This document shows, in pieces, positions 5,799 to 41,068 of a stretch of 64,000 bases of DNA; the stretch's first letter is position 1, and every line of letters starts with the position of its first letter. The stretch spans positions 158,679-222,678 of the IMG/VR virus record IMGVR_UViG_3300044765_000092. One strand, written 5' to 3'. The notes below the pieces were generated by a model, which was given only the letters and a program-made list of their open reading frames with translations, searched no databases and was not told the origin of the DNA. Source of the stretch: a virus. Its lineage: Duplodnaviria; Heunggongvirae; Uroviricota; Caudoviricetes. Position numbers and translations under genes: made by a program.

Positions 5799-5808
5799 CT
5801 TCATTTAC
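5799..5808 (-). promoter_or_regulatory. conserved intergenic motif TCATTTACAG (gene-sense CTGTAAATGA), copy 1
   Basis: Overlaps the TGA stop of the AAA+ ATPase gene. It lies 55 nt upstream of the next start. Confidence 0.45.
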
Positions 5809-7093
5809 AGTTGTCGTCTACCGCAACACGAAAGCCGCGTCCGATCCGGACGCTGGACACCCCTGCAACCTTGGGCTTTGGCTTGTCGCTGGACGCTGTG
5901 TCGTCCCCAACACTGACCAAGGGCTTGGTATCGTACTCGATACTGTCGCCGCTTCGGAGCCCGTCATCCAGAATTCGCATACGAGCAACCGCATCTTCGA
6001 GTGATTCTTCGTCTTCTTCAGCCGATTGCGTATGGTCTGCTCCAGATTCTGGCTTGATCTGGATCATCTCGTCGTTCGAGCTTGACCGCGTTTGCAAAAA
6101 GCCTGGGCCACCGGCGTCGAAGTCGGCTGAAGATTTCTCTCGGGCGATCCAGTTGATGCGCTGGATTGCGGTGTCCAAGTCTTGCCCGAAGCATGACAGG
6201 AGCACAACCAATTCGCGCAAGTGAGCGATGGAGTACCCTTTGGTCTTGGCGATAGCAGTATCAAGATCGGCCCCTTGAAGTGAGGGAAGCTTCCACCGGA
6301 GATACTGTCGACGAGCGCCATCGCTGGGCATGCCGACACGTTGAATTGTGTCGAAGCGAGAAGGACGATTGGTAAATCGCTTGTCCAGCTTCTCGATGTA
6401 ATTGGTTGTGGCCAGAAACACGACCTTGTCAACTTGCGTCTCGCCGTCGAGTAGCGCAAGATACGCTGATTCGTCGTACCGATTGACCAGTGCATCGAAG
6501 TCTTCCATCAGCACCAGAATCAGTCGATGCGGCTCGATACGTCGGATCATGCGCAAGCACTCGGCACCCAGATTCGGATGCTCCAAGAACAATACGATGC
6601 CACCTCGGGCAATCACGTCTTGGACCAGAAGGTTGAGAGTACTGGTCTTGCCTGACCCCGGAGGCCCGTACAGAAGGATTCCACGTTTGTGCAAGAACCC
6701 ATGCTCTCGGAACTTGTTCTCCAGAGCCAGAAAGCGATCGACTTCGTTGAGCACCCAGCTCGACACGCAGTCTTCTAGCAGAAGAAGCGAATCGCTCTTG
6801 ATATCTACCTTTACCAAGTAGGTACCTAGAGCATCACTGTGACCGCACTTGTACAGAGCTGGTGGCAGTTCCTTGTAGGTCTCTTTGCTCGGCCAGTACA
6901 AACCGTTTGTCGAGCTCCACATCGAAGTGTGGTCCAGCGATCGCCCCCTGTTTGACGCCAGCTCGCTTAACTCAGCATGCGACGACGGAATAAGGGTGCT
7001 ATCTGATTCATGTCTTGCCATTTGTTTAACCCGTTCAGCTATGTCTGGAGGTGGAGGATCGCCGTTGATCAGGCTACCGATGTATCCTGGCAT
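5801..7093 (-). CDS. AAA+ ATPase (classical AAA clade)
   Basis: Walker A GPPGSGKTS, Walker B LVLMEDFD and second region of homology ...NRPSRFD. Confidence 0.8.
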   Translation of the reverse strand: MPGYIGSLINGDPPPPDIAERVKQMARHESDSTLIPSSHAELSELASNRGRSLDHTSMWSSTNGLYWPSKETYKELPPALYKCGHSDALGTYLVKVDIKSDSLLLLEDCVSSWVLNEVDRFLALENKFREHGFLHKRGILLYGPPGSGKTSTLNLLVQDVIARGGIVLFLEHPNLGAECLRMIRRIEPHRLILVLMEDFDALVNRYDESAYLALLDGETQVDKVVFLATTNYIEKLDKRFTNRPSRFDTIQRVGMPSDGARRQYLRWKLPSLQGADLDTAIAKTKGYSIAHLRELVVLLSCFGQDLDTAIQRINWIAREKSSADFDAGGPGFLQTRSSSNDEMIQIKPESGADHTQSAEEDEESLEDAVARMRILDDGLRSGDSIEYDTKPLVSVGDDTASSDKPKPKVAGVSSVRIGRGFRVAVDDNCK

Positions 7094-7366
7094 TCAAAAT
7101 CCGACTATAAGAGCACCGAACATCACGCCAACAAAATACCCGATGAAGTCCGTGAGGTTGTCGATGAACTTCTGCTTCGGTACTTCGTAAGTGGCATCAA
7201 ACCAGAACTCCTTGACCGCAAAGGTAACCAGCAACAGGCAGATGATCAGGAAATTGGAGTGGAACAGCATACCCATGCTGAACGCAAACCAGAAGTGCGC
7301 CATCGCCGCAACGAACGTCAAGTTCGTGCCGGCCTTGGCTACCAGATTGATCAAGGATTGCATCAT
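7094..7366 (-). CDS. small membrane protein
   Basis: 90 aa and hydrophobic. Its stop abuts the downstream start. Confidence 0.5.
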   Translation of the reverse strand: MMQSLINLVAKAGTNLTFVAAMAHFWFAFSMGMLFHSNFLIICLLLVTFAVKEFWFDATYEVPKQKFIDNLTDFIGYFVGVMFGALIVGF

Positions 7367-7390
7367 GACCCGATGGTTCTAACTGTGATG

Positions 7391-7466
7391 TGGTGGAAAG
7401 TAGTGGGATCGAACCACTGACCACCTCCTTATGAAGGAGGCGCTCTACCGACTGAGCTAACTTTCC
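7391..7466 (-). tRNA. tRNA with CAT anticodon (Met or lysidine-Ile)
   Basis: Hand-folded cloverleaf: GGAAAGT/ACTTTCC acceptor, D-arm GCTC-AGTCGGTA-GAGC, loop TTCATAA, T-arm TTCGATC, CCA encoded. Confidence 0.85.
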
Positions 7467-7470
7467 ACTG

Positions 7471-7546
7471 TGGTGGATCGTGACGGGCTCGAACCGCCGA
7501 CCTACGCCTTGTAAGGGCGCCGCTCTACCAACTGAGCTAACAATCC
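7471..7546 (-). tRNA. tRNA-Val (TAC)
   Basis: Acceptor GGATTGT/ACGATCC, anticodon loop CTTACAA, T-loop TTCGAGC, CCA encoded. Confidence 0.85.
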
Positions 7547-7549
7547 AAA

Positions 7550-7627
7550 TGGTCCGGGTGACAGGGATCGAACCTGCGACCTCATGCTCCCAAAGCACGC
7601 GCGCTACCAGACTGCGCTACACCCGGA
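7550..7627 (-). tRNA. tRNA-Pro (TGG)
   Basis: Acceptor CCGGGTG/CACCCGG, anticodon loop TTTGGGA, T-loop TTCGATC, CCA encoded. Confidence 0.8.
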
Positions 7628-7638
7628 TATGTCGAAGA

Positions 7639-8486: not shown

Positions 8487-8499
8487 GGTGATAGCCTCT

Positions 8500-9345: not shown

Positions 9346-9447
9346 TTGGCGACATGCCAGCCTGTGAGAAATGTGGATCCAGCGTCGTGGTGTTCATGAT
9401 GTCGATGGCAGAAACATCCTTGAACACTAGGATATTTTCTTACCTTC

Positions 9448-9736: not shown

Positions 9737-9746
9737 TCATTTACAG
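9737..9746 (-). promoter_or_regulatory. TCATTTACAG motif, copy 2
   Basis: Overlaps the TAA stop of CDS 9741..10043. Confidence 0.45.
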
Positions 9747-10043
9747 TTCGTCGTCTTCGATCGGTGGACCAAGAACTTCGGCCAGACCGTCTTTGAGGTC
9801 CTGGATCTGCCGGAGCTCAGGCAGTGTTAGACCTTGTCCAGGATTGGCCCAAAGGTTACGTCGAACATTGCCGCAGCCTTCGCAGCTGCACGCCTTACGG
9901 TTGTTGACCAACGCTCGATTCATGACCTCGGCGTGAGCCGGATCGTCGCGTTGAACCCAACGGGTTGTTAGGTATTCACTGCGCATCCACTTGAGCAGTC
10001 GTGCTCGATGGTGACGACGAAGTGCTCGCTTGGTGTCTTTCAT
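9741..10043 (-). CDS. hypothetical basic protein
   Basis: 100-aa ORF. Confidence 0.5.
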   Translation of the reverse strand: MKDTKRALRRHHRARLLKWMRSEYLTTRWVQRDDPAHAEVMNRALVNNRKACSCEGCGNVRRNLWANPGQGLTLPELRQIQDLKDGLAEVLGPPIEDDEL

Positions 10044-10531: not shown

Positions 10532-10778
10532 ACTACGTTATAAGGGGGCGCACGCTATCACACTACGCTTAGGTCGACTCGGGCAGAACGCGCAAATGGT
10601 CACCTTCCGAATAGAGTCGTTCCCACCTGTCCGTGTACCAGCGAACAGATGCCCACCTTACGATGGGGCACTGAGTCTCGTTCTCAGCCTGTAGGTGCTA
10701 ATGTCGTTTTCCTCGGTACTCCGGAACTCCCGAGGGTTTAACATGCCGACCGGATCGGCTTTTCGGTTCAACACTATC

Positions 10779-10786
10779 CCTTTACA
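10779..10786 (-). promoter_or_regulatory. variant motif CTTTACAG (gene-sense CTGTAAAG) in a 260-bp hairpin-rich leader
   Basis: Matches the motif core. Followed by several short hairpins, for example GCCGA-tccgg-TCGGC and CCTCGG-N13-CCGAGG. Confidence 0.3.
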
Positions 10787-10794
10787 GTAAGGAA

Positions 10795-11649
10795 TTAACC
10801 ACCGTGCAGACCGTGCTTACGCAGGATCTTGCGGCTGGCAGTCAGCTTCTCGCTGTAATAGCGACCGGGCGGACAGGTCTTGCGGTCAAGAAGCCGCCAG
10901 GGCCAGGTGTCAGCCGGGTTGTCGAGCGGTGTGTATCCACGGACCCAGACCGGGTGACCACGCCGCTCGCGCTCCGTCCGGCTGAGAGTCGACCACTCGA
11001 TAGGAGAAATACCGATAGGGCGATGATATTCACGACGAGGTGCCGGAATATCAGCCAGCTTGTAGACGAACCACACGCCGTCAATCAGGTACAGGTGCGT
11101 GTCACGGTCATGGACACGAAATCGGGCATGGCGCTCGGCGTCGCGTTCCTCAGCCTTACGCTTTGCCGAACCAGTGGCGTTGGGCTCGAAGTTCGAACAC
11201 AGAACGCCGGTCACGGGATGCGCGTAGTAGGTAGCCCACTTCTGATTGTCAGTCGGCTTGATAGGCTCCCAGCCATCCCAACGGCTGAACGCGTGGATCT
11301 TCCCATCGATCAGACAGACGTTATTTTCTATGCAGTCGCGTTCGACGTGCTGCATGATATGCTTGTTCGTGAACTTGCGCTGATCGAACGTCTGGCAGAT
11401 TTCAGAGTAAACGTCGTTCCAAGGGCGGCCAACATTCTTGGCCATGAACCGACGCAGAGGGCTGAGGTGATCGCCAAAGCTCTTGCGCTCACCGCGGGCG
11501 ACGCGGCGGCGCTTCATCATCGATTCCTTACCGCCGGAGAATTCGTCGTCGAAGACGGCGTTTTCCTTGGCGTTACGGATCGGGTGGAACGTGGAACGGC
11601 TGAGGCGGCGTGGGTCCTCGGTCAGGACCTTGTGGAAATCCTTTCGCAT
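10795..11649 (-). CDS. hypothetical protein
   Basis: 284-aa ORF. The opposite-strand 612-aa ORF is antisense noise. Confidence 0.6.
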   Translation of the reverse strand: MRKDFHKVLTEDPRRLSRSTFHPIRNAKENAVFDDEFSGGKESMMKRRRVARGERKSFGDHLSPLRRFMAKNVGRPWNDVYSEICQTFDQRKFTNKHIMQHVERDCIENNVCLIDGKIHAFSRWDGWEPIKPTDNQKWATYYAHPVTGVLCSNFEPNATGSAKRKAEERDAERHARFRVHDRDTHLYLIDGVWFVYKLADIPAPRREYHRPIGISPIEWSTLSRTERERRGHPVWVRGYTPLDNPADTWPWRLLDRKTCPPGRYYSEKLTASRKILRKHGLHGG

Positions 11650-13812: not shown

Positions 13813-14637
13813 TCAGCGGTCTCTCGATTTGAGGGTCACGGGACGGCGAAGCTTCATCAGCTTGGTGCCACCGATCAGAGTACACAGACCGGCGAGAAGC
13901 AGTAGAGGTGACGGCAGCTCAGGCACTGGTGACGGTGGCGGAACCACGATCGGCGGCGGCTCTGGCTGCTTGTCACAGCAAGGACACGGCTCAGGAATGT
14001 AGATCGGTGGCAGATAACTCATCAGCGGAGGCCAATTGATGGGTGGCACGCCATACACCGGCCGATCAGGTGGTACTGAGGACAACGTGTCGGGTGGCAG
14101 CGGACCAGCGTCAAACACTACGGCTGTCGGTGTCACTGGCTGAGGAGTAAAGTCAATGGTACCACCGCCGCCGCCACCATCAGTGGCAGGCGGCACTTGT
14201 CTCACATGTTCGTACACACGGGTAACGCGGGCCACGTTATCGCACACCGTAGGAACGATCACGCAGTTTTCAGCGCCAGAAGCACCAACGGCCGAGCAGA
14301 ACACCAGTCCACGCTCAGCCATTGAATCTGTCCACTTTGCTCTGGACACAGAGTGACACACAGGACCATGCCCGCTGTGCATGTCCCGAAAGTCGGTGTA
14401 TTCGTATCGACCTGAGATGCGCGTGGCCGTGATGTCTGCCACGTCGTCATAGGCGTGAACCCGAATCTTTGTTTTGAGATCAGCCCGTTGTTCGGGCGGG
14501 ATATCCTTGTAGTCGTCGACGGCAGCCGCGATGTCAGAGTGGTTGTCGCGGTACGGATTGGCCCCCGGATGGTCCCAGGAACACGATGCAGACGCCATGT
14601 TGGAGCTGAGCACCAGAGCCGAAAGTAGCATTGTCAT
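13813..14637 (-). CDS. secreted protein: signal peptide, unknown globular domain, Pro-rich linker and a PEP-CTERM-like C-terminal anchor
   Basis: N-terminal MTMLLSALVLSSNMASASC. C-terminal ...VPELPSPLLLLAGLCTLIGGTKLMKLRRP resembles the VPEP + TM + basic-tail sorting signal. Confidence 0.5.
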   Translation of the reverse strand: MTMLLSALVLSSNMASASCSWDHPGANPYRDNHSDIAAAVDDYKDIPPEQRADLKTKIRVHAYDDVADITATRISGRYEYTDFRDMHSGHGPVCHSVSRAKWTDSMAERGLVFCSAVGASGAENCVIVPTVCDNVARVTRVYEHVRQVPPATDGGGGGGTIDFTPQPVTPTAVVFDAGPLPPDTLSSVPPDRPVYGVPPINWPPLMSYLPPIYIPEPCPCCDKQPEPPPIVVPPPSPVPELPSPLLLLAGLCTLIGGTKLMKLRRPVTLKSRDR

Positions 14638-14662
14638 GGCTATTCCTCCTGTTGTTGAACGC

Positions 14663-14671
14663 CATTTACAG
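14663..14671 (-). promoter_or_regulatory. CATTTACAG motif, copy 3 (gene-sense CTGTAAATGG)
   Basis: Overlaps the TAA stop of CDS 14666..15112. It lies 25 nt upstream of the next ATG, with AGGAGG between. Confidence 0.45.
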
Positions 14672-15112
14672 TTGCGAGGTCGCGGGGACTACTGAGTGAG
14701 CGTGAACCCGCCTAGCTTCTAACCAAGCGTATTCGAGAGAATCGTCCAGTTGGTCCAACATATGCTCAGTACGAGCCAGTTCCAACTTGTCGAGCCTGCG
14801 TTGTTCGCGCCATTCCTCGAGAAGCGTGCGCGCTCTGTGTTGCGATTCCTCGTCTCGAGGCATTTCACGAAATTCGTCGCAAGCACTACGAACGAGGTTC
14901 GCCCTGTAGCGTCGATTGTCGATCGACTCTGGATCAATGATGTAGCTGAACTCAGGCACGTATTCTTCGACGACTTCTGGCTCCTCGTCCTCGACATCAT
15001 CGTCATTATTGACATTATCGATGTGGTCAGAAATCAACGCGTACCCAAACACGACTAATACGACTAACCACCACGGTACGTTGGTCAGGAGACTGCCTAT
15101 TGAGTCAATCAT
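14666..15112 (-). CDS. membrane-anchored acidic protein
   Basis: N-terminal transmembrane helix followed by a D/E-rich region. Confidence 0.5.
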   Translation of the reverse strand: MIDSIGSLLTNVPWWLVVLVVFGYALISDHIDNVNNDDDVEDEEPEVVEEYVPEFSYIIDPESIDNRRYRANLVRSACDEFREMPRDEESQHRARTLLEEWREQRRLDKLELARTEHMLDQLDDSLEYAWLEARRVHAHSVVPATSQL

Positions 15113-15618: not shown

Positions 15619-16206
15619 TCACTCACCGTGACTTTGAAGTGGCGGTGGATCATAATCCGAATCAGCCCATCCGTCTTCGACGTCCTTGACTTCATCGTCT
15701 GATGGCATCGGCTTTGGACACGGCTGCGAGGCCGCACGTAGAGCCTTGACTTCCTGAGCCAGGATATACATGGCGATGGTACCAAGCGAGAAGCAGTCAC
15801 GCACACCTTGGGTGTTGCTCGTCCACTCAGCTATCCTCTCCAGCGCCCAATCCACTGTGTATTCGTTTTCCGGTGCAGATGGGTGTTTCTTCTGTTGCAG
15901 TTGCGCCAGCGAAATGACACTCAGCTGATCGAAGAGCCGTGTGTTCTTACGCGAAAGCTCTTCTAGCTGACCCTGAAGGGTTCTGATCGTACATGCTGCG
16001 CATGGTTGCCCTTGCATCACAGCCTTGTGGTCCTTGCACAAGTTGTTTGCCAGGGAATTGGCCATCAATTGGCTTAGATACTGCAAATGAATCCGGTCAT
16101 CGGCATGAGTGTTCATCAGGTCGTTGATGAACTTATCAACCGCATCCGCGTCGTATACTCTAGCCCCATCTACGAACGATTGCTGAAAACGTCTACTCAG
16201 GTCCAT
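15619..16206 (-). CDS. hypothetical protein
   Basis: 195-aa ORF. Confidence 0.55.
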   Translation of the reverse strand: MDLSRRFQQSFVDGARVYDADAVDKFINDLMNTHADDRIHLQYLSQLMANSLANNLCKDHKAVMQGQPCAACTIRTLQGQLEELSRKNTRLFDQLSVISLAQLQQKKHPSAPENEYTVDWALERIAEWTSNTQGVRDCFSLGTIAMYILAQEVKALRAASQPCPKPMPSDDEVKDVEDGWADSDYDPPPLQSHGE

Positions 16207-16829
16207 TGGTTTGCTAAATATTTGCGGAGCTGGCTCTTGGCCTTGAGATCTGCACGGAGCATGCGTCGTGCCTCGGCTACTACAGCGAGGTTGAACTTGG
16301 CGTCAGCGACGGCCGTGTGCTGTTGTCCTGGGTGTTTGACATCCACACCCAGGAACTTTCTTAGAGTAGACACATCTCGTACGATCTTGTAATTCCAAGG
16401 TGCTTCTAGTCCACAGGACTCAAACAACGAGCCAAGTCGGGCCAGATCGAAGTCAGGATGATTACACCACAGTTCTTCAGCTTTGCTGAAGGCCTGAACG
16501 AGCGAATAATGGAGTTCTTCGACAGTTGAGGTGCCAGACGCGTAACCTAAGAATCGTTTGTTCCCGTGAGTACGTATCTGGAAGTCCAGCGTATTCTTGG
16601 TGTAAGAGCGGCCGAGCGCCAACTGCTCGGCTACCGACATGTAGTGCGTTTCCTCAAAGTCGATGCCGACGCTGAAGTCATCCGGGCTGATGTACTGACC
16701 GTATACACCCACTTCGTGGATAATGCAGTCGTACCTAAGAGAAAGGGTCTCGATATCGAGACCCACGATCTTGATTTCTTCCATGTTCTTGGACGTTGAG
16801 TGGAGCGGGAGTGCCGAGTCAAACGGCAC
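16197..16829 (-). CDS. DEDDh-family 3'-5' exonuclease (RNase T / DnaQ-like)
   Basis: Exo I IVGLDIET, Exo II NHPDFDLARL, Exo III HTAVADA. The start may be the internal MEEIKIV at 16784. Confidence 0.65.
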   Translation of the reverse strand: MPFDSALPLHSTSKNMEEIKIVGLDIETLSLRYDCIIHEVGVYGQYISPDDFSVGIDFEETHYMSVAEQLALGRSYTKNTLDFQIRTHGNKRFLGYASGTSTVEELHYSLVQAFSKAEELWCNHPDFDLARLGSLFESCGLEAPWNYKIVRDVSTLRKFLGVDVKHPGQQHTAVADAKFNLAVVAEARRMLRADLKAKSQLRKYLANQWT

Positions 16830-16990: not shown

Positions 16991-17121
16991 TGATGCCATC
17001 GGCTTGCTTGAACACACAGGCTATGCGCTCAAGAAAGCCCCCGAGTTGGTCGTATCCAGTCCTCGTCGGGAGCATCTGCTCTAAATCTACACTGCCGTTT
17101 TAACAACGATCACGAATAAAA

Positions 17122-17214
17122 TGGCGCGCTCTACCGCTGAGCTACCCGCCCTTAGAATGCACAACGAAATGCACTGTGGAGGGCGGGACAGGATTTGAAC
17201 CTGTGGCCTAGCCA
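17122..17214 (-). tRNA. candidate circularly permuted tRNA gene
   Basis: Gene sense 17214->17177: TGGCT-AGGCC-ACAGG-TTCAAAT-CCTGT-CCCGCCC-T-CCA. Gene sense 17151->17122: GGGCGGG-TA-GCTC-AGCGGTA-GAGC-G-CGCCA. Acceptor strands pair 7/7 and anticodon-stem strands pair 4/5. The two halves are joined 3'-to-5' by a 25-nt linker. Confidence 0.45.
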
Positions 17215-17304
17215 TTTAGAGTATGGGTCGGAACTGTCAGAATTGAGAGCAGTCTTTGACAACGTATATCGGCAAAACTACAAGGAGCAACATCAGAGCT
17301 TTCA

Positions 17305-17398: not shown

Positions 17399-17448
17399 AA
17401 GCTCATATCACTACAACGATCACGGATAGCCGATAACTTTGTCGATGA

Positions 17449-17468
17449 GGCTGAGTCCTAGCTCAGCC
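17449..17468 (-). other. 7-bp hairpin GGCTGAG-ctagga-CTCAGCC immediately 3' of motif copy 4, at the head of the tRNA-like cluster
   Basis: Seen directly in the sequence. Confidence 0.4.
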
Positions 17469-17478
17469 CCTATGGGTG

Positions 17479-17488
17479 TCATTTACAG
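17479..17488 (-). promoter_or_regulatory. TCATTTACAG motif, copy 4
   Basis: 23 nt downstream of the stop of CDS 17511..18296. Directly upstream of the tRNA-like cluster. Confidence 0.45.
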
Positions 17489-18296: not shown

Positions 18297-19078
18297 GGTG
18301 ATTCTTTCTTGACGTTGATGATCACAGCAATAGCGGATCCAACCTCTGCCGCGTTTGGCTGGATCCTGGTCACAAAACCCTCGCTCCGGGCTGCGATGAG
18401 CGTTACGTAGAGTAGCTCCTGGGCGGACTCGGTGCCTATCCACCTGTCAAAACCTGGGTCTCGAATCCGAGTGTAGGCCACGGATCGTCAAAGCGGGAGT
18501 GTGAGACTGGCTGAGAGGCAAATTCATCTCACTACTACAGGCGACGGACTTCAAGGCGAGCTTACCCACGCTATCGCTCGCACCGGCACCGACGATCAAC
18601 CGTAGCAGTCGTCAGTGGTTTCTTGGGTGGGGCGATGGCCGGAGTCACGATCCCTACTAACCGAATTGCCGCTATCACGCGTATCGCGTGCAATCCAGAT
18701 TCGGCACCCCACAGATGGCGAGACCGCACGGCACTCGGCAACAGGAGCGACCTATCACCAAATGACAGTCCTCTAGGCGACCGTGATTTGCACTGACATC
18801 GCTTCTCTTGCGGTCGAGGATGGAACCCGCGCTAAGTCTCATTGAAGAAAGCTCTACAGCCGTATTAAGCGAGTGCGCTGCGGTAGCAACGCACCCGAAG
18901 GGAGGAGGATGAGAGATCAACAAGCCTCTTGGCAGGGACTTGGTCAAAAGAGCAATGGCTGTAGAGCGTAAAGGTGTAAGGTGCGACCCTTCGCAGGTAG
19001 GTCGCACGCCCCTCGGTTAACTGCGTGTCACGAACCCCTCTTGCGCAGGGCCGTAGGACAGATCAGGGGAATTCAGCG

Positions 19079-19498
19079 TTAGCCGATTACTGACAGGTCC
19101 ATGCCGCAGGCGCGGACCTTACTCACGGTTTCTAGATTGATCGTGCGATAACCAGCAGCCTGAACATCGAAGATCGTCATATAAGGGCGATCGATCGCAA
19201 CTGTTTTGTTGTCGCCTCCCTTCAGATGCTTGCGCACCTGGAAGCGACCAGTCAGCTTGCGGTATGAACCGTCCTGTTTAACGAACTCCACCGTCAGAAA
19301 ACGATCCGCTTGTGCCCGCAGGAATTCCTTCAGGTTCACTCGGTGGATCTGGATCTGGGTCTCTGCTTTCGCAGCTGTGACCGCAGAAGCTGCTTTTTCG
19401 GCTGGAACAGTTTGGGCCACAGGTTGAAGCGTGAGGGAGGGCACACTCAGGTCTGAGGCAGAAGACTGCGCAGTCTCGATGGTGGTTTGTTGGCACAT
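19079..19498 (-). CDS. hypothetical protein
   Basis: ORF 19079..19549. The ATG at 19496-19498 (MCQQTTIE) is preceded by AAGGA. Confidence 0.5.
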   Translation of the reverse strand: MCQQTTIETAQSSASDLSVPSLTLQPVAQTVPAEKAASAVTAAKAETQIQIHRVNLKEFLRAQADRFLTVEFVKQDGSYRKLTGRFQVRKHLKGGDNKTVAIDRPYMTIFDVQAAGYRTINLETVSKVRACGMDLSVIG

Positions 19499-19640
19499 GA
19501 TGTCGTCCTTTCTACTAAACCGCATCCACATTGATGCGCGCTCGAACATCGCAGTGGATTATGTGCAACGTAGCAGAACGGAACAGACTCAACCTAGTAC
19601 GCTGCCGAAGCCCTAGTGCGTGCCTCGGTTTGCATACTGC

Positions 19641-19650
19641 TCATTTACAG
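19641..19650 (-). promoter_or_regulatory. TCATTTACAG motif, copy 5
   Basis: 8 nt downstream of the TAA stop of CDS 19659..21446. Confidence 0.45.
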
Positions 19651-19658: not shown

Positions 19659-21446
19659 TTAGTCCCAACGGTCGATCTTGATGCGGCGCTTGACCATCGA
19701 GCCGTCGTCGATGATAACGACCATCGGATGCGGCGATGGACCGTCGGAGAACATAAAGCCGCAGGCTGTGGCTTCAGCTGCACCGGTCGGAGACTTGGAG
19801 TTCGAGTGCGCCTCGATGGTCGAGCGTACTTCGTGCAACTCGGCGTGGAGGAAGTCCGGGAACAGTCCGAGACCCGTCTGACCACGTTCGGCCTGACGAT
19901 CGTACATACCGTCGAGGAAGAACGTCACCGACTTCTGATGTTGTGGGTACTCGTTCAGGTCGTCCCACATGTGAGGCGCGTAGGCAACGCCTGTCACATC
20001 GACCCAGCCTGGGCGGAGGTTCCAGATGTCAGGGGTTGACCCCTCGACATACACGTACCAAGACACCGGATTGCGGCACTCCGGCCGATCCCATTGGATA
20101 ATCGGTGGTGCGTCAGGATACACGGCAGTCATGAACGCAGTAAACGGCTGCCGGTTGTACGTGATTTCGACAGCGATTCGCTTGGCCTGCGGCAGAACCT
20201 GCGCCTGGAACCGCGCCCAGGTCATGTTCACCGTAGGCAAAAGCTCGGCAGTCTTTGGCTCGTTCTTCTGCTTGGACTTCAGGTGGCCGAACACACCGCC
20301 TTGGTACTCCGATTCCGGTTCCGGAATCGTAGGTGACCACAACATCTGTTGGATGTCTTCCAGACGTGCGAACCGCCGTTCGAGCGACGGTGCAAGGCCG
20401 AGCTTGGCGATCAACTCCTCAGCTCGCTTGATGTTGCCGTCAGTAGGCGCAGCCTGCGGCCGCTTGTACTTATCGGGAGCCACCTTTTGTTCGAATGACG
20501 CCTTGACCTGTGCGATTGGCACCCCGCTTTCCAGATCGGCGAGCAGTGAGCCAACGAGCGACGCTCGTGGATGGCAGAAACCTTCCGGGGCCGATGCCAC
20601 GGCTCGCCACAGGATGTTCCGGCGTTCACGCTGGGACTTCACTTGGTCCAACGTATACCGCAGGTCTGCCAGGAAGTTGATCGGGCCCGTCACCTTCTCG
20701 TTGCCACGGAGCACATCGCTTTCGATGATCGTCTTAGCCTTTTGGAGAAGTCCGGCGTCGAACTCAGACAGAGCCCGGCTCATCGTCTGGTAGCGGTGCT
20801 TGATGTTGGCGGCGGCCTGGAACGGCGTCTTGGTTTTCGACGAGAACACGAACCGATAGTGTGGCTTGACCGCAAAGTGCGTCCACACACCGGTCTTCGC
20901 CGTACCCCACATCTTGTGGTCGGTCTTGAACACGTCGCTGATTTCGCACTTCGGGATCAGGCGTTCGAACGCTGCGGCCACCGGCTTGTAGTGATCAGGC
21001 GCGTCGTACTCAGACCACAGAGCCGACTTCAGCTGACCGTTTGGCAACACGATCGCCAGTGATCCATAGCTGTTGATGAACTTGCGGCACTCGCTGCACG
21101 TATGGTACTGACGCCACTCGATCGGAAACGTCGACAGGTAGTAGTCGTAGAGAGTAGGCGCACCCTGCACACCGTCGGCGGTCAATCCGCGGGGGTCGGT
21201 CATACCTCCGGGCCGAACACCCATCTGATGGAGGATGGGGCCGACGTTGGCGACAAACAGATTGTCCTGCGTTGCGGTCGTCGTGTCGAATCGGCGTTGG
21301 AGCCGGAGCATGTACTCGTTGAATTCGGCTTGACGCTCGGCATTTGGTGCCGAGGTATGGACGTGAGCAGCCGTAACTGATGCTGCTGCTGCGGCGGCAG
21401 AGATGGTCGAAGCCTTGGTGTTTGTACTGCTAGCAGTTCTGGACAT
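19659..21446 (-). CDS. hypothetical protein (595 aa)
   Basis: Long ORF. The internal 255-aa and 163-aa plus-strand ORFs are antisense artefacts. Confidence 0.6.
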   Translation of the reverse strand: MSRTASSTNTKASTISAAAAAASVTAAHVHTSAPNAERQAEFNEYMLRLQRRFDTTTATQDNLFVANVGPILHQMGVRPGGMTDPRGLTADGVQGAPTLYDYYLSTFPIEWRQYHTCSECRKFINSYGSLAIVLPNGQLKSALWSEYDAPDHYKPVAAAFERLIPKCEISDVFKTDHKMWGTAKTGVWTHFAVKPHYRFVFSSKTKTPFQAAANIKHRYQTMSRALSEFDAGLLQKAKTIIESDVLRGNEKVTGPINFLADLRYTLDQVKSQRERRNILWRAVASAPEGFCHPRASLVGSLLADLESGVPIAQVKASFEQKVAPDKYKRPQAAPTDGNIKRAEELIAKLGLAPSLERRFARLEDIQQMLWSPTIPEPESEYQGGVFGHLKSKQKNEPKTAELLPTVNMTWARFQAQVLPQAKRIAVEITYNRQPFTAFMTAVYPDAPPIIQWDRPECRNPVSWYVYVEGSTPDIWNLRPGWVDVTGVAYAPHMWDDLNEYPQHQKSVTFFLDGMYDRQAERGQTGLGLFPDFLHAELHEVRSTIEAHSNSKSPTGAAEATACGFMFSDGPSPHPMVVIIDDGSMVKRRIKIDRWD

Positions 21447-21525
21447 GGTTGTTGTTCCTTCGCGTAAGGGGTAGCGCGCGCACGCACGGGCTGTGGTTTT
21501 GGTTTACCTTTCGCGCCGCTACCCT

Positions 21526-21535
21526 TCATTTACAG
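21526..21535 (-). promoter_or_regulatory. TCATTTACAG motif, copy 6
   Basis: 47 nt downstream of the stop of CDS 21582..22466. Followed in gene sense by AGGGTAGCG...CGCTACCCCT, an 8-bp inverted repeat. Confidence 0.45.
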
Positions 21536-23700: not shown

Positions 23701-24474
23701 TTATTCGGCAGCCGACTCCAGGCGCTTGTACAGAGCCTTGATCTCAGCTGCCGACGGGAACGGCAGAACCTTGGTGAACGCGGCAGGCATGAACTTCAGG
23801 GCCTTGCGCAGAGTCCGCCATTCGACCGTGGGCTTGCCCGTCTTCTTGTCCTTCTTGATGTCGATGGCCTTGCCATCCTTGCCGACCTTCATCCGGGCTT
23901 CGCGCAGCGCCACCATCAGGCTGTCGTCGGCCTTGCGGGCACCGACGCGCATCAGCATGTCGAACTTGGCGTTGCCGGGCAGGCGCTTGCTGTCGTTGCG
24001 AATGAACGTGGGACCGGCGAAGCGCGTGGCCATCCGGCGTTCGGTGTCCGGATCATAGACCGACAGGTCCAGCGTCTTGGCGTTCTCGTTCGTGGGGCTG
24101 CCCTTGATGCGAGTGGCCTTGACATCGGTGATGATGCCGTCCTTGGCAGTCAGCATGGTCACGCGCATGAAGAAGGGCTTGAATTCAGCCGGAGCCTTGA
24201 ACGTCGGGATGGGCTTGCGTGCCGGACGCTTCCGGGCTGCAGCACCGGTCTTCTTGGCAGGGAATCCCTTCTTGACCGGGGGCGGCACTGGCTTGGCGTC
24301 GACGGCCTTGGCATTGAGCTTGCCTTTCGCACCGGCGACGGGCTTGGTCTTGCCGGCCGGAGCAGCGGCCACCTTCTTATTGGGAGCGGCCTTCTTGCCG
24401 GCGTCCTTGACTGCGTTCGTACGATTGGCTTTCTTGGCAGTTGCCATGATGTTCTTCCTTGAAATTGAGCTCAA
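23701..24474 (-). CDS. DNA-binding-like protein with a histone-H1-like Lys/Ala/Pro-rich N-terminal tail
   Basis: Residues 10-90 are KKAxPxKK-type low-complexity sequence, followed by a globular C-terminal domain. Confidence 0.5.
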   Translation of the reverse strand: MSSISRKNIMATAKKANRTNAVKDAGKKAAPNKKVAAAPAGKTKPVAGAKGKLNAKAVDAKPVPPPVKKGFPAKKTGAAARKRPARKPIPTFKAPAEFKPFFMRVTMLTAKDGIITDVKATRIKGSPTNENAKTLDLSVYDPDTERRMATRFAGPTFIRNDSKRLPGNAKFDMLMRVGARKADDSLMVALREARMKVGKDGKAIDIKKDKKTGKPTVEWRTLRKALKFMPAAFTKVLPFPSAAEIKALYKRLESAAE

Positions 24475-24520: not shown

Positions 24521-24530
24521 TCATTTACAG
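24521..24530 (-). promoter_or_regulatory. TCATTTACAG motif, copy 7
   Basis: 20 nt downstream of the stop of CDS 24550..24966. Followed in gene sense by GGGTAG, as in copy 6. Confidence 0.45.
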
Positions 24531-32489: not shown

Positions 32490-32840
32490 TCACTCGTCGT
32501 CCCATGCTTTAGCACCTTTGGGTGCGGGTTTGGCTCGGATTGTGTTCTTGGATTTCTTCTTGGCAGACTCCTCATCTTTAGACTTGGACTTGCCCTTGTT
32601 GTCACGCGGTTCGAGCGTGCGTGCCTCTTCGTCGACGTTGGCAAGCGCCAGCCTCAGAGCTTTGATCAGTCTCGGTGCGTTGTCCACGTGAACCGACATG
32701 CCCTGTCGGGTGGGGATCCAATCAGCGTTCTCGTCCTTCTTCCAGAACTTGCGAACGTTCAGAAACTTCTCGCCTTCGTCGTTGCGGAACGAATCCACAA
32801 CGATCTTGTTGCTGTCGTCGATCTTGATGGCACGACCCAT
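32490..32840 (-). CDS. hypothetical protein with a Lys-rich tail
   Basis: 116-aa ORF. Confidence 0.45.
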   Translation of the reverse strand: MGRAIKIDDSNKIVVDSFRNDEGEKFLNVRKFWKKDENADWIPTRQGMSVHVDNAPRLIKALRLALANVDEEARTLEPRDNKGKSKSKDEESAKKKSKNTIRAKPAPKGAKAWDDE

Positions 32841-33505: not shown

Positions 33506-33913
33506 TCAAGGAAGTTGGAGGAGTTTGTGACCAGTTGGGTCAACAGCTAGGCCACACCACACGATCGGTGGTGCGATGTGGGATTCACAGGAAGCGTGCT
33601 CTGCGGCTTCAGCGGTCACGAACGACTGTGACCAGTAACCTGTCTCGGCGTCGTATTTACGATAGTATCGTAGCTCCGAATACGTGGCTTGTGCATCAGC
33701 CAAGTCAGACAGCAGATGGACCGAATAGACGCCAGTCATTGTCGGAACCTGAACTTCGAGCAGGAACCACTTGGTGAGACGGAGGCGAAGCGCAGCGACA
33801 GGTCGCGACGATTGTGACGGTCTGGCTGTAGTACCGCCACTGCCGCCGCCCCCGGCCTTACTAGATCGAGTAGTCGCCATGATAGGCTCCCGTTTGATTG
33901 TATAGGTAGTCAC
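33506..33913 (-). CDS. hypothetical protein
   Basis: 135-aa ORF. Confidence 0.45.
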   Translation of the reverse strand: MTTYTIKREPIMATTRSSKAGGGGSGGTTARPSQSSRPVAALRLRLTKWFLLEVQVPTMTGVYSVHLLSDLADAQATYSELRYYRKYDAETGYWSQSFVTAEAAEHASCESHIAPPIVWCGLAVDPTGHKLLQLP

Positions 33914-34206
33914 AGCAGGCCCGGTCCATGTCCAGTAAACAACAGGGTGCCGCAGTCAGGATATCGCGTACATTCTGCGAGCAGAATCACGCTCTTGAGC
34001 GCACGCTCAGCCGGATAGCCAAGATCTGCCTTGTCACAGAACTCGCGCACCATGTTATAGGCCGTTGTCGGATCTGGTGCTACTACGTAGGACGTACCGT
34101 AACGGGGTCCTGTGACCGATATTTGCATGCCCTGCAACTCGACTCGATAGAGGTTGAGTTGTTGGACGCCCCACGCGCTCTGTTGTTGGTGATGATCGAC
34201 ACTCAT
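33910..34206 (-). CDS. hypothetical protein
   Basis: 98-aa ORF with 4-nt overlaps to both neighbours. Confidence 0.45.
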   Translation of the reverse strand: MSVDHHQQQSAWGVQQLNLYRVELQGMQISVTGPRYGTSYVVAPDPTTAYNMVREFCDKADLGYPAERALKSVILLAECTRYPDCGTLLFTGHGPGLL

Positions 34207-35285
34207 TTGCGTTTCCTTAGTTTCTGCACCACGATCGATGCGTGCTCAGACAGTGCGTCGTTCGACAACCGTGACAGCGCCGAGCAGTAGGTATTACGCA
34301 CAACATTTACAGCCTTCTTTAGCTGCCCAACTCCAGCCCCTAGTTGCTGGACTTTTAGTTCACGCCACAGGACTTCGATGCCTACCTGGAGCAACTCGTT
34401 GGTAGAGAACTTGAGTGGGTGTTTAGAGTGTTCCCGGATCACGTGGCCGTTCTTGGTGTAGACCACGACCTCGTCAGGTTTGCGAGTCTCCAACTGGTGG
34501 ACTACAGCATACGCCACAAACGACATGGTCTCCAGATTAAATGGCTTGACCGTGCCGCTCAGGACTGGGAGGTTCTCAATGTCCACCTCCTCATGCGAGC
34601 GCACCCACTGGTAGAGGCCACCGACTCCGGTCTCACACACAAAGTTCTGGCGCTGATCGGCTTGCACCAGCGACTTGAACATATAGAGCGGACCATACTG
34701 CGCGACGCCTGCCTGGACATTGCGCCCGTTGACCTGAACGTTCTTCACGTGATACACGACTTCAGCTACATCGTCCTCGTAGTCAAGGACCCGCCGTTCG
34801 TACGATCTGAACCATCGACTAGTCAGCTGACCTGAGTGGGTACTGCGCATCAACGCGATTGCAGTGTTGAGCCGATCGATGTATGTAGTGGCTGCCACCA
34901 ATGGCAGCGCCTGTGGCACTGACGTAGTAGTGTCGATCACACCTGCGTGGACATGAGGACCCGATGCAGCGTGTTCCATCACGGCGACTACTCGCCAGTT
35001 CGGGTTCATGCGTTTCGCCACCAGCGGTAACAACCGCATCTCGGCTTCAGTCACACGTTTGGCACCCAAAACGGTCATGGTCTTGCTGCGCTGAAACTGT
35101 GAGAAGTACCGGACGATCCGGTTCACAAACCCGGCGTACTGTCCATTGCCTGATCCACGCCGTGCCCGAGTTTTGGTTCCTTTGGTTCTCGGCTTTGTCT
35201 TAGCCGTGGTGACCGACCGTTGGCCCATACTTCGAGTTGTTCGGGCCGATATTTGTAGAGAGTTACTCTGCTGTGCCATACTCAC
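34203..35285 (-). CDS. hypothetical protein (360 aa) with a basic N-terminus
   Basis: Long ORF. The GPHVHAGVI sequence gives it an HxH motif, but that is not enough to call a function. Confidence 0.55.
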   Translation of the reverse strand: MSMAQQSNSLQISARTTRSMGQRSVTTAKTKPRTKGTKTRARRGSGNGQYAGFVNRIVRYFSQFQRSKTMTVLGAKRVTEAEMRLLPLVAKRMNPNWRVVAVMEHAASGPHVHAGVIDTTTSVPQALPLVAATTYIDRLNTAIALMRSTHSGQLTSRWFRSYERRVLDYEDDVAEVVYHVKNVQVNGRNVQAGVAQYGPLYMFKSLVQADQRQNFVCETGVGGLYQWVRSHEEVDIENLPVLSGTVKPFNLETMSFVAYAVVHQLETRKPDEVVVYTKNGHVIREHSKHPLKFSTNELLQVGIEVLWRELKVQQLGAGVGQLKKAVNVVRNTYCSALSRLSNDALSEHASIVVQKLRKRK

Positions 35286-38335: not shown

Positions 38336-38583
38336 TGTGTTTGGGTGTCGAACACACGGATGTTCGAACTCAGGGTTTTGAACGCGGCTTCCAGCCTCTC
38401 ACTATAAGTGAAAACGATGTCCACTCGGTTAGGGGCATCGACCTGCGGCGTCGCTGACACGAACTGCGACCCTATACCGTTCGTGGCAAACAAGGTGTTG
38501 AGATCTGCGACGATTCGATCGATCGTAGCTTGGTCGACGGGCTTGCCATCTCTACTACCGAGAGTTGCTCCGATGCACTTCAT
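38332..38583 (-). CDS. hypothetical small protein
   Basis: 83-aa ORF. Confidence 0.4.
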   Translation of the reverse strand: MKCIGATLGSRDGKPVDQATIDRIVADLNTLFATNGIGSQFVSATPQVDAPNRVDIVFTYSERLEAAFKTLSSNIRVFDTQTQ

Positions 38584-38948
38584 TGCATGTCCTTGATGAG
38601 TGGGGCTTGGCGCACGTACTCACCGTAAAAGGTAGCGTATCGAGATTGAAAGGCCGCCGCACGTGGAAGCTCACTGATCTCGCGATTGGTCAATACCTTA
38701 GTAAGCGTCTGGGGTGTCGGTCGCTGCAACGTCGACCGCAAGACGAAGGTGTCGACCATAGCGTCGCGGAACGAAAGGGCAAACTCAGAATGAGATGAAC
38801 CGCGAAGGGATGAAAGCGCCTCATGTTGAAACGTCAGGGTCGAGGCGCCGAGCTTTAGAGCGGCTCTCCACTCCTCGCAATCGGCTGGCAGGCTGGCTGC
38901 CATGTCACCAAGCAACTTGGTCAAGCGATCGATCTGTGCTCTGTCCAT
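38580..38948 (-). CDS. hypothetical protein
   Basis: 122-aa ORF. Its start is preceded by GGAGAG. Confidence 0.45.
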   Translation of the reverse strand: MDRAQIDRLTKLLGDMAASLPADCEEWRAALKLGASTLTFQHEALSSLRGSSHSEFALSFRDAMVDTFVLRSTLQRPTPQTLTKVLTNREISELPRAAAFQSRYATFYGEYVRQAPLIKDMQ

Positions 38949-38983
38949 TCGACTCTCCTTCTGGCTGACTGATAAACGTGTGT

Positions 38984-39005
38984 GCTAGCGCGCACGCGCG
39001 CTAGC
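38984..39005 (-). other. perfect 10-bp GC hairpin GCTAGCGCGC-acg-GCGCGCTAGC, 4 nt 3' of motif copy 8 and 40 nt upstream of the next start
   Basis: Seen directly in the sequence. Confidence 0.5.
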
Positions 39006-39009
39006 AACA

Positions 39010-39019
39010 TCATTTACAG
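39010..39019 (-). promoter_or_regulatory. TCATTTACAG motif, copy 8
   Basis: Directly 3' of the stop of CDS 39014..40084. Confidence 0.45.
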
Positions 39020-40084
39020 TATGAACTTGTCGGCAGGCAGCACAGGCGGGCCGCCGAGTTTGCGTGTCCACAGCTGAAGCGCGATCTCAAGCATTGTCGA
39101 TCGGCTTTGATCAATACCCTTCTCGATTTCGTCGTCCTTAAGTTCAATGGAGAAGGCCTCTTCGTAGGCCATTACCAATTCGACGGTATCAAGTGAATCT
39201 GCCCCAAGGTCGCGAACTGTCTTGTTCCAGCCTTGGGCTACAAAGTCAGCCTGTTGAAGACCGAGTTGATCGCAGGTCGTTCGAATAAACTTTTCTTTGA
39301 AGGCGCTGAGACTGATGGTCCAGACCTGGTCCCCAACCTTGTAGCTGGCAGTTTGCAACCAGAAGGCTAATCCCTCGTTGGGGACCACTTTAATCTCGGT
39401 TGTCTTTGCTGTTTTTGCCGCCTTTGGCTTATAGACCGTGTCCTCATCGTCATCATCGTCATCATCGGGATCAGCTGACTTCTTGGGCGGCGTCGACCGC
39501 GGCGCAACACCCCGAGGCGGTCTGTACTTGTTGGTTGGCGCTTCGGTTCGTTCGATAAAAGGATTGTCGTGTACCAGTGGTTCGCCGCCCCACACCCGTT
39601 CGATCTGCTTGTTGATCCAGCGAATTGCCTCTTGTGGATGCCAGTTGCCAAGAACGTGGTTGCAGATGCCGAGAACGTACCATTTGTAGTACGAGCTCGG
39701 AACAAAGCCGACTAGGCTAGGACCGGCGGTGTGCAAGATCCCGTAACCGTCGAGTGCGCAATAGGATCGGCCCTGAACACCGATCCTGAGGTCCAAACCG
39801 CCCTGACCAGCCAACGGCCCCTGAACGACTTGACCCAAGTGAGTGACGATCGGCACTTCGGTCCTCGACCTAGGCCACTGCCGGTCGGCCGGTCGCCCAT
39901 GATCGTAGGCGATGAGGGCAACCATGTCATCGTATCGAAGAGACAGGGGGTTGGCATCCGTCGGTGGTTCGAGCAGCAGGAACATTGGGTTCTTTGCCGC
40001 CTGGTCATAGACACTAGTCCCGGTCCCTACCCTCGTCCGGTCTTGGATGGGCAACAGGTATTGGAAGTTGTTCATTTCTTTCAC
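39014..40084 (-). CDS. fusion protein: unknown N-terminal domain, poly-Asp linker and a C-terminal acyl carrier protein (phosphopantetheine-binding) domain
   Basis: C-terminal [30 protein letters not shown] is nearly identical to E. coli ACP helix II ([30 protein letters not shown]), including the DSL serine. Confidence 0.7.
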   Translation of the reverse strand: [356 protein letters not shown]

Positions 40085-40115
40085 TCCGTTTGTTGGTGTG
40101 GTAAGCGAGTAACAC

Positions 40116-40319
40116 CTAGATAGATCTGTCGGTTTGTCGCTCCAGTTCGAGCACCCGTTTCAACGCCTGTACCTCTCGGCTTCGAAAGAAGTCTTGAACC
40201 AGGACGCCGGTCATAAATCCAAGGACAAGGGCCAGCCACGGTGCATCCCCGTAGGCTTGGCCCAGGGCCATGATGGCGCATGCCACTATCCACAGCAACT
40301 CTCGGTTAGTTCTGTCCAT
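40116..40319 (-). CDS. small membrane protein
   Basis: ORF 40116..40382 with the ATG (MDRTNREL) at 40317-40319. Confidence 0.4.
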   Translation of the reverse strand: MDRTNRELLWIVACAIMALGQAYGDAPWLALVLGFMTGVLVQDFFRSREVQALKRVLELERQTDRSI

Positions 40320-40632
40320 CGGTGTTCTCCTGTTCGTCGGTCTGGGTCTCGGCCCAACGTTTGTGGGCTTTGATGGTGGCAACGCCTATAAATGGAGTGA
40401 TGGCCGTCACTACAACCTGAATGGTTACCCATCCCCATTTGCCATCGACAAGCAGTACAAGCCACCATACAACCAATGCACAGGCGGCTAGCCCACCTAG
40501 CATCACTACTGTGATAAGGCCTCCGTCTGAGGCCCAGAATTTCTGTACTACGTTACACAGCTCTTCGAGCCATACTCTAGTGAATGACATCTTCTCGTTC
40601 GTTGGTTCACCTGTGGCTGGTTGTTTGTTCAT
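40306..40632 (-). CDS. membrane protein
   Basis: 108 aa with two transmembrane segments. Confidence 0.45.
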   Translation of the reverse strand: MNKQPATGEPTNEKMSFTRVWLEELCNVVQKFWASDGGLITVVMLGGLAACALVVWWLVLLVDGKWGWVTIQVVVTAITPFIGVATIKAHKRWAETQTDEQENTDGQN

Positions 40633-40653
40633 TGTCGGTCCTTTTCTTTGTCG

Positions 40654-41007
40654 TCAATCATGCTGGTCATCTTTCGCCCGTTCGTCTTTCCATTGATTGA
40701 TCGCTCTACTGGTTATTGGCCATAGAATCGGTGTCAGTACCACTATCATCATTTCTGTTACAGCCCATCCGTAGGCTTTGACCGATACCAGGAACGTGCC
40801 TAAGAATAGCAGGCCAGTGAACGCACATGCGCCTGCTATCATGCAGAGCAGTTCACCAAATTCTGACCACCATTCTCTAATGGCCTTTAGGCAGACCGAC
40901 CACCAGATTTGAACAAAGGTACGGTCGCTGTTCGGCCGCCGCTCTTTTCCTTTATGTTCTACCCTGTCTGAATCCGAATCCGGATCTGTTATCGTTTGTT
41001 CGTTCAT
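40654..41007 (-). CDS. membrane protein
   Basis: ORF 40654..41055. The ATG at 41005-41007 (MNEQTITD) is preceded by AGGAAAGG. First gene of the leftward arm. Confidence 0.5.
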   Translation of the reverse strand: MNEQTITDPDSDSDRVEHKGKERRPNSDRTFVQIWWSVCLKAIREWWSEFGELLCMIAGACAFTGLLFLGTFLVSVKAYGWAVTEMMIVVLTPILWPITSRAINQWKDERAKDDQHD

Positions 41008-41058
41008 TGTCTGGCCTTTCCTTTGTGTGTGCAGAGCACTCGTGTCTAACAACACCTG

Positions 41059-41068
41059 TCATTTACAG
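41059..41068 (-). promoter_or_regulatory. TCATTTACAG motif, copy 9
   Basis: 52 nt upstream of the first leftward gene, at the edge of the divergent switch region. Confidence 0.45.

Follow-up and report, generated by a model that had tools for sequence, protein, structure and literature searches.

The 64,000-nucleotide stretch analysed here, called the window below, covers positions 158,679 to 222,678 of the IMG/VR record IMGVR_UViG_3300044765_000092, a tailed phage of the class Caudoviricetes. Between some of its genes lies a short repeated motif, whose consensus in gene sense is (A/T)A-CTGTAAATGA with the 8-bp form TGTAAATG, and which is the subject of this analysis. The genes form two divergent arms, one on the - strand from about 41007 down to 1 and the other on the + strand from 41643 (gene calls are approximate where pipeline calls are lacking). 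The left arm encodes an AAA ATPase, RtcB, an SPFH protein, a protein with an acyl carrier protein (ACP) domain, a thymidylate-kinase-like protein and six tRNAs, and it also holds many genes without a family match. RtcB, an Rv2179c-like exoribonuclease and Y RNA-like RNAs make up its RNA-metabolism genes. The first ~9 kb of the right arm are non-structural and are followed by the virion genes, which include tail tube and baseplate genes as well as:

52872-53930, + strand: capsid gene
56387-58321, + strand: tail sheath gene

The window capsid is 51-56% identical to the capsids of the jumbo myoviruses BcepSauron, phiRSL1, BCSR5 and Motura, and no deposited phage is close to the window at the DNA level. 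A 238,018-bp JGI contig is on record as carrying one of the window proteins, and identical sequence is found in the Logan assemblies of SRR35359593, where the contig reaches about 600 nt beyond the left edge of the window. Because of this contig we take the window to be ~27% of an uncultured jumbo-phage genome of ~238 kb. The left arm is a variable region, and most of its genes are absent from the relatives.

On the + strand of the window letters the motif is written TCATTTACAG, which occurs in eight exact copies, all on that strand and all in the leftward arm (starts at 5801, 9737, 17479, 19641, 21526, 24521, 39010 and 41059). By shuffling, 0.07 copies are expected, and no shuffle reached eight. 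An earlier note on this DNA had also counted eight, with the first at 5799 instead of 5801. Its one-off variant at 14662 is present and reads CCATTTACAG; its weak copy is present too, at 10780-10787 with the gene-sense sequence ACTGTAAAGGGATAG and not at 10779. The statement that all copies lie on the same strand, in the leftward arm and between genes is right for the eight exact copies and overlooked two others, an intragenic one at 34303 and one on the + strand at 41602. The copies are as follows.

5801-5810, - strand: motif copy whose TGA ends the AAA-ATPase gene 5801-7093; 57 nucleotides (nt) before gene 5516-5743
9737-9746, - strand: motif copy whose TAA ends gene 9741-10043, with a weak hairpin after it
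10774-10788, - strand: decayed copy, just past the stop of gene 10795-11649
14662-14671, - strand: variant CTGTAAATGG with one mismatch; its TAA is the stop of gene 14666-15112; 24 nt before the ATG at 14637, with AGGAGG between
17479-17488, - strand: motif copy, 51 nt before the first of two Y RNA-like genes
19641-19650, - strand: motif copy, 18 nt past the DUF8224 stop codon, with the next gene 109-142 nt downstream
21526-21535, - strand: motif copy with the extension A-GGGTAG, 79 nt before the DUF8224 gene, which encodes 595 amino acids (aa)
24521-24530, - strand: motif copy with the extension GGGTAG, 73 nt before gene 23701-24447
34303-34312, - strand: variant CTGTAAATGT (ACATTTACAG) with one mismatch, within gene 34203-35279 and 96 nt before gene 33910-34206; possibly an internal copy
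39010-39019, - strand: motif copy whose TAA ends the ACP-domain gene 39014-40075; 61 nt before gene 38580-38948
41059-41068, - strand: motif copy CTGTAAATGA heading the leftward arm, 51 nt before the first leftward gene 40654-41007
41601-41610, + strand: core variant TTGTAAATGC (TGTAAATG at 41602-41609), 33 nt before the first rightward gene 41643-41863

In an unbiased k-mer survey CTGTAAATGA and its sub-words rank first among the 8-, 9- and 10-mers of the window. The 10-mer is 377-fold over-represented, whereas the best unrelated 10-mer reaches 22-fold. Counting both strands, the window contains 11 copies of the core TGTAAAT, ten of them in the leftward arm and one on the + strand at 41602. 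All 11 copies are in gene sense (P about 5e-4), and at least nine are non-coding or overlap a stop codon (P about 5e-6). Neither strand of the structural arm contains TGTAAAT (21.4 kb, including 7.9 kb beyond the window), and no TAAAT-type element was found in the gaps upstream of the structural genes. The core is thus limited to non-structural units; because of the + strand copy it is not strictly limited to one arm. The motif had not been seen earlier in the rightward structural arm, and this holds; its description as arm-specific fails at the head of the rightward arm.

Aligned on each other, the copies show a sharp-edged block in the information-content profile, with nothing conserved at -50 to -3 or downstream, and position 8 of the motif is G in all window copies. 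No second motif class was found in the left-arm gaps without the motif, where only Shine-Dalgarno words recur, and a literature search found no report of the motif.

A stop codon inside the motif ends the upstream gene at four sites (TGA at 5801; TAA at 9737, 14662 and 39010). The remaining copies lie 18-56 nt past the upstream stop. From the motif to the next gene the distance is 24-142 nt and varies with the gene call. The ranges given previously were 8-47 nt for the first distance and 25 to about 390 nt for the second; the stop overlap noted earlier is confirmed. Since TAA or TGA is present in two of the three frames of the motif and the genes are tightly packed, this overlap needs no special explanation. 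An ATG within the motif was considered as a start codon and rejected: it opens reading frames of only 2-43 codons (and one of 109, which overlaps another gene), and the version of the motif in the relatives has no ATG.

The copy at 17479 precedes two tandem matches to the Y RNA-like family YrlA (Rfam: RF02553), which carry tRNA-like modules. A tRNA-like cluster had indeed been noted behind this copy, and its identity is that of a YrlA-like pair:

17103-17231, - strand: YrlA-like match, 35.3 bits, E 7e-6, below the Rfam gathering score
17289-17427, - strand: YrlA-like match, 33.6 bits, E 2e-5, below the Rfam gathering score

Since the motif stands before genes for non-coding RNAs and for proteins alike, it is not a translational signal. 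The pair sits between the DUF7873 gene and the Rv2179c-like 3'-5' exoribonuclease gene 16197-16784, with the tRNAs and RtcB in the same arm, and this neighbourhood is reminiscent of rsr-yrlBA-rtcBA in bacteria, although the window yielded no Ro60/TROVE protein. In a relative whose capsid is 69% identical, both members of the pair are conserved at the orthologous site, and one of them (L009 14910-15012) again scores as YrlA-like, with E 1.4e-3.

Between the two arms an independent pipeline calls no gene, so that a gene-free junction of 635 nt separates them:

41008-41642, no strand: divergent junction, 635 nt, AT-rich (40-48% GC), non-coding, with two outward-facing core copies
41412-41441, + strand: sigma70-like promoter TTGACC-18-TATCAT, 160 nt upstream of the + strand core copy

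The two core copies stand 51 nt (leftward) and 33 nt (rightward) before the first gene of each arm. Early promoters may lie in the junction, or it may have another control function or serve as an origin. Its + strand is strongly T-rich.

The IMG/VR relatives, whose capsids are 68-69% identical to the window capsid, carry the motif as A(A/C)TGTAAATA(A/G). Across 30 kb of its accessory arm, a 249-kb relative (IMGVR_UViG_3300037312_000330) has six copies of TGTAAAT in sense and none in antisense orientation, and the sequence is TGTAAATA(A/G) in five of the six. For four copies a gene starts 37-91 nt downstream; of the other two, one overlaps a stop codon and one is intragenic. The core is absent from the structural arm of this phage, as is the motif from the structural genes of relative L004. 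In three relatives (L003, L004 and L006) the junction beside the structural module holds AATGTAAATA, pointing away from the module, and this is the longest invariant block of their junction alignment. Two orthologous loci could be compared directly. Gene 23701-24447 of the window and its orthologue in the relative (18520-19203) both have the motif upstream, while the spacer is no longer alignable. At the junction between the DUF7873 gene and the Y RNA-like genes, ~50 nt with motif and hairpin are present in the window phage only, as a clean indel. Position 8, always G in the window, is A in five of six arm copies and in both extra junction copies of the relatives, which matches expectation if the sites co-evolve with a factor.

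In a codon-shuffle test that preserves the codon content of each gene, the core is avoided in antisense orientation within genes, with TGTAAA observed 0 times against 5.9 expected (P=0.002) and GTAAAT once against 5.4 expected (P=0.02); the sense-orientation expectation was too low for testing. Such antisense avoidance points to a signal at the DNA level, as expected for a promoter element and unlike a signal read in RNA. It is our main computational argument for separating the two, and we give it moderate weight.

We now turn to the reading that position, orientation, conservation and avoidance best support, and from which promoter activity is predicted: fairly probably, the motif is a phage-specific, single-element, T4-late-like promoter of non-structural transcription units. 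The features that speak for it are the sense-only orientation, the short and variable distance to the gene, the occurrence before any type of gene, the copies at arm heads in four phages, the footprint-like conservation, the change of one position throughout the related lineage, the lack of sigma70 features and the avoidance in both orientations. A phage promoter class with a T4-late-like core had been proposed in the earlier note, which fits these data, with the reservation that the structural genes lack it. Readings by host sigma factors do not fit the sequence. There is no sigma70 -10 hexamer (with A2 and T6) within the motif and no -35 element, so that sigma70, extended -10 and other host-sigma readings were rejected, and sigma70-type promoters are not enriched in the left arm (9 found, 9.2 expected). 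A LexA box (CTGT-N8-ACAG) does not fit either.

As a promoter, the motif would act as a single -10-like core element without a -35 partner. It would head non-structural units, namely the accessory genes, the module of RtcB, exoribonuclease and tRNAs, and the two Y RNA-like genes. Host RNA polymerase, redirected by a phage-encoded specificity factor, would bind it; the factor might be a minimal sigma like T4 gp55 or another protein, and would be encoded elsewhere than in the window. Transcripts would begin a few nucleotides past the motif and, in about half of the units, would have a GC-rich hairpin at their extreme 5' end, where it could stabilise them and perhaps attenuate upstream read-through. 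The stop codons in the motif would merely end whichever upstream gene enters it. What the sequence shows is enrichment, sense-only orientation, position, conservation across phages and avoidance elsewhere; promoter activity and, with it, the point of initiation, the factor, the timing of expression and the part played by the hairpin are inferred.

Several results weigh against a promoter. A search of all window proteins (~27% of the genome) with Pfam and PHROGs, for the sigma or other RNA-polymerase-binding factor that had been suggested as a follow-up, found no sigma, no gp33-like protein and no convincing transcription factor, and tblastn with T4 gp55 against ~190 kb of sequence of the lineage gave no match. 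Only about a quarter of the left-arm gaps hold the motif, and 14 kb of the arm have a single variant copy; this is compatible with operons but assigns no promoter to the other genes. The structural genes lack the motif, unlike those behind T4 late promoters. The sigma70-like promoter at 41412-41441 means that the head-of-arm position, taken alone, also accommodates a signal read in RNA. Stable hairpins follow three of ten motif copies and two of 29 stops in motif-less gaps, an association that is not significant. Finally, neither the first 50 kb of phiRSL1 nor 50 kb of BcepSauron (38-88 kb) contains the motif, so that it is specific to a sub-clade.

The hints of a factor within the window are all sub-threshold and consist of a PC4-like protein, a WYL_2 match and a 'transcriptional regulator'. 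The first is a basic protein of 116 aa (32490-32840, - strand) that matches the PC4 coactivator and single-stranded-DNA-binding family with E 1.7e-3 and 18.3 bits, below the cutoff of 25. BcepSauron gp101 (YP_009904479.1, L134 20671-21399, 242 aa), named 'RNA polymerase' in RefSeq, was considered and dropped, as it has no Pfam or PHROG support; no homologue of it was found in the window or in the loci of the relatives. Capsid similarity groups the window phage with phiRSL1, BcepSauron and Motura. phiRSL1 and Motura are assigned to jumbo subgroup 2.2, and group 2 jumbo phages encode no RNA polymerase but do encode sigma factors and a gp33 orthologue (PMC7824862). This makes a host polymerase redirected by a phage factor plausible.

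The closest model is found in phage T4. Its late promoters, with the 8-bp consensus TATAAATA, are read by the host RNA polymerase together with gp55, gp33 and the gp45 clamp, and their transcripts begin about 6-7 nt past the element. Like the window motif, they consist of one short A/T-rich, -10-like element with no -35; the form TGTAAATA of the relatives matches them at seven of eight positions and the window form TGTAAATG at six of eight. There are also differences: position 2 is always G and not A (TATAAATG denotes TGTAAATG with this position changed from G to A), the conserved block is longer (10-12 nt), and the motif heads accessory and RNA-metabolism units and not capsid and tail genes. 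The T4 consensus TATAAATA itself is absent from the window, whose sole TATAAAT is antisense inside a gene. Strictly speaking, the motif is thus no T4-type late promoter, because the consensus differs, the structural genes lack it and no gp55 or gp33 homologue was found in the window or in ~190 kb of sequence of the lineage. Promoters with only a -10 element are also read by phage-encoded sigma factors in other phages, as by gp36 of phiEco32. The window motif resembles this type as a short, lineage-specific and strictly conserved element that has no -35 partner and lies upstream of what would be a temporal class of genes, and differs from it in sequence.

The hairpins that follow some of the copies are central to the alternatives. 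The four described in the earlier note are all present, with longer stems than reported (9-11 bp), and a fifth follows the copy at 19641:

5768-5796, - strand: hairpin after the 5801 copy, 9-bp core stem ACAAGGGGC/GCCCCTTGT, starting 5 nt past the motif; its tail TTGTTGTCC is not a true U-tract
17445-17472, - strand: hairpin after the 17479 copy, 9-bp stem GGGGCTGAG/CTCAGCCTC, starting 9 nt past the motif, z=-2.9
19596-19638, - strand: stable hairpin after the 19641 copy, starting 3 nt past the motif, no U-tract, z=-2.7
21470-21525, - strand: long-range hairpin after the 21526 copy, GGGTAGCGGCGCG...CGCGCGCTACC, directly past the motif, -21 kcal/mol
38982-39008, - strand: perfect, GC-rich hairpin after the 39010 copy, 10-bp stem GCTAGCGCGC/GCGCGCTAGC, starting ~3-5 nt past the motif, z=-3.2

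They start 1-9 nt past the motif and none has a U-tract; the tails behind them are CATTGG, CGACAA, ACACGT and GTTGAG. They share no sequence and differ in size. Four to five of ten copies have no hairpin, and it is missing at 14662, 34303, 41059 and 41602, the last two being the head-of-arm copies. A regular pairing of hairpin and motif is thus not secured by the statistics, and the excess over motif-less gaps is a trend only (Fisher p=0.10, Mann-Whitney p=0.16). The 50 nt upstream of the motif are unremarkable in folding (mean z -0.5). Intrinsic terminators with a GC hairpin and a U-tract are found elsewhere in the same genome:

16737-16764, - strand: intrinsic terminator downstream of the Y RNA-like unit
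50318-50355, + strand: intrinsic terminator just before the structural module
54778-54809, + strand: intrinsic terminator after gene 53994-54770

The motif hairpins are therefore not ordinary terminators, as had been argued from their missing U-tracts, because the same genome uses textbook ones. The capsid gene is also followed by a hairpin without a U-tract, at 53941-53965.

We regard it as unlikely that the motif is instead read in RNA, either as a ribonuclease cleavage or landing site with a protective hairpin or as a boxA/boxB-like antitermination site. Such a signal would account for the order of motif and then hairpin at 1-9 nt spacing, which is that of a linear element with a stem-loop, and for copies at the gene boundaries of long co-directional, potentially polycistronic arms; the sigma70-like promoter upstream of the + strand junction copy and the plentiful RNA-metabolism genes of the arm are also in its favour. 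The RNase III sites of T7 offer an analogy for a hairpin that protects a new 5' end, and lambda-type nut sites one for a linear motif followed within a few nt by a stem-loop, downstream of possible early promoters. However, the hairpins are unlike in sequence and size, their excess is not significant, and they are absent from 4-5 of ten copies including both arm heads, and an RNA signal does not predict the antisense avoidance of the core within genes. In L004 the whole divergent gap is only ~190 nt, which leaves little room for a promoter upstream of the leftward copy. The motif is also unlike boxA (CGCTCTTA-type), and at least ten copies per 40-kb arm are unlike nut sites, of which an arm of lambda has one. 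The RNA-processing alternative raised earlier is accordingly weakened by the avoidance and by hairpins that are optional and not conserved.

A more specific form of an RNA signal, which we consider quite improbable, is a strictly conserved, single-stranded RNA tag of 10 nt, often with a clamp-like hairpin, that marks the 5' boundary of each expression unit and is read by a phage-encoded RNA-processing, RNA-repair or antitermination factor. If true, the tag would be tied to the RNA module of the arm (RtcB, the Rv2179c-like exoribonuclease, the Y RNA-like RNAs and the tRNAs) and would be a multi-copy, sequence-specific RNA punctuation in a jumbo phage.

It is very doubtful that the motif is the site of an activator, a repressor or another DNA-binding factor beside a promoter and not the polymerase element itself. 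A regulator site would account for position, orientation, conservation and two-strand avoidance as well as a promoter does, and it suits the lack of a sigma in the window. Yet the motif is asymmetric and present as one copy per site, unlike typical dimeric operators, and there is neither a second conserved element (-10/-35) at a fixed distance nor an enrichment of sigma70-like promoters nearby. At 14662 the 24 nt between motif and ATG include the ribosome-binding site and leave no room for a separate downstream promoter.

We give very little credence to the idea that the copies are the remains or the borders of small cassettes that move or recombine, and that they matter mainly for genome plasticity. 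The PeSL (promoter-early stem-loop) cassettes of T4-like phages have a sigma70-type -35/-10 promoter with an AT-rich upstream region and, upstream of the promoter, a stem-loop that works as a terminator (PMC2839356, PMC4122927). Like them, the window cassette combines a short repeated, putative promoter element with a stem-loop among small, poorly conserved genes of a variable region; unlike them, it has a single non-sigma70 element and a hairpin that is downstream, optional and without a U-tract. PeSL-like shuffling would fit the variable arm, whose genes are mostly absent from the relatives, the clean indel of ~50 nt with motif and hairpin at the DUF7873/Y RNA-like junction, which is one case and no pattern, and the GGGTAG-type extension at three copies (one of them decayed) and in L003. 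On the other side, the ~10-12 conserved nt are too short for homologous recombination, the flanks are unrelated, and the sense-only orientation upstream of genes indicates an expression signal. The cassette idea complements the promoter and does not replace it. As for the extension, noted earlier on the copies at 21526 and 24521 and found there, a GGGTAG-like tail is common to these two, to the decayed ACTGTAAAGGGATAG (10774-10788) and to TGTAAATAGGTGGGTAGG of L003 (~780-800), which hints at a common origin of some copies, by duplication or transfer of a unit that is slightly larger than the motif.

Finally, a non-canonical, factor-dependent terminator or 3'-end signal of the upstream gene, formed by motif and hairpin together, is hardly credible: several copies do lie on or near stop codons with GC-rich hairpins after them, but the stop overlap is explained by the TAA and TGA within the motif, U-tracts are missing in a genome that has canonical terminators, in four phages the copies at arm heads lack both a hairpin and an upstream gene on their strand, and the cassette at the DUF7873/Y RNA-like junction precedes Y RNA-like genes that need transcription.

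Some observations on the neighbouring genes and on other phages are added here. The DUF8224 (Pfam: PF26675) protein of 595 aa (19659-21446, - strand) is flanked by motif copies on both sides. Its family has hundreds of homologues of ~530 aa with 36-44% identity in metagenomes and bacteria (e.g. Archangium and Corallococcus), and no sequence match was found among solved structures, so that a role as Ro60-like partner of the Y RNA-like genes was rejected. Anchoring with left-arm proteins found no phage relatives of the AAA ATPase, the ACP-domain protein, the DUF8224 protein or a nucleotidyltransferase, and RtcB was dropped as an anchor since the family is too widespread. In the 353-aa protein encoded at 39014-40075 (- strand) the ACP (PP-binding) domain is confined to the C-terminus (residues 264-317); the ACPs encoded in the equivalent arm of phiRSL1 and BCSR5 are stand-alone proteins.

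The accessory arm of phiRSL1 (L002) has an over-represented sense word of its own, TCCCATCGAAA, with six copies at 6908, 7366, 7837, 16894, 43580 and 44012 (about 140-fold), at least three of which are ~22 nt upstream of an annotated start. It may be the phiRSL1 counterpart of the signal. No word comparable to the motif was found in BcepSauron (38-88 kb). In L004 (4168-4702, - strand sense) a motif copy stands between direct repeats of ~35 nt that each form a hairpin (AAGCACTTTTCACCTTATCAACATATAAGGTGA), giving the layout hairpin, motif, hairpin. A collection-wide scan with the 14-mer TGTAAATAATAGGG of the relatives gave about 120 or more single matches that are due to chance, and the two loci with double matches belong to unrelated AT-rich phages, where the word is antisense to genes.

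If the motif is a promoter, it establishes no new principle, as lineage-specific single-element promoters are familiar in phages; it would be a further example of an ordinary type of signal that is useful for annotation. It would delimit the transcription units of the accessory arm, set the structural genes apart as a different regulatory class and flag an independently promoted Y RNA-like unit. It would also predict a specificity factor whose recognition has shifted at one position (G or A at position 8) between sister phages, and this switch would be a natural experiment in the co-evolution of promoter and factor. For the uncultured sub-clade of jumbo phages related to phiRSL1, the motif would then serve as an annotation key.

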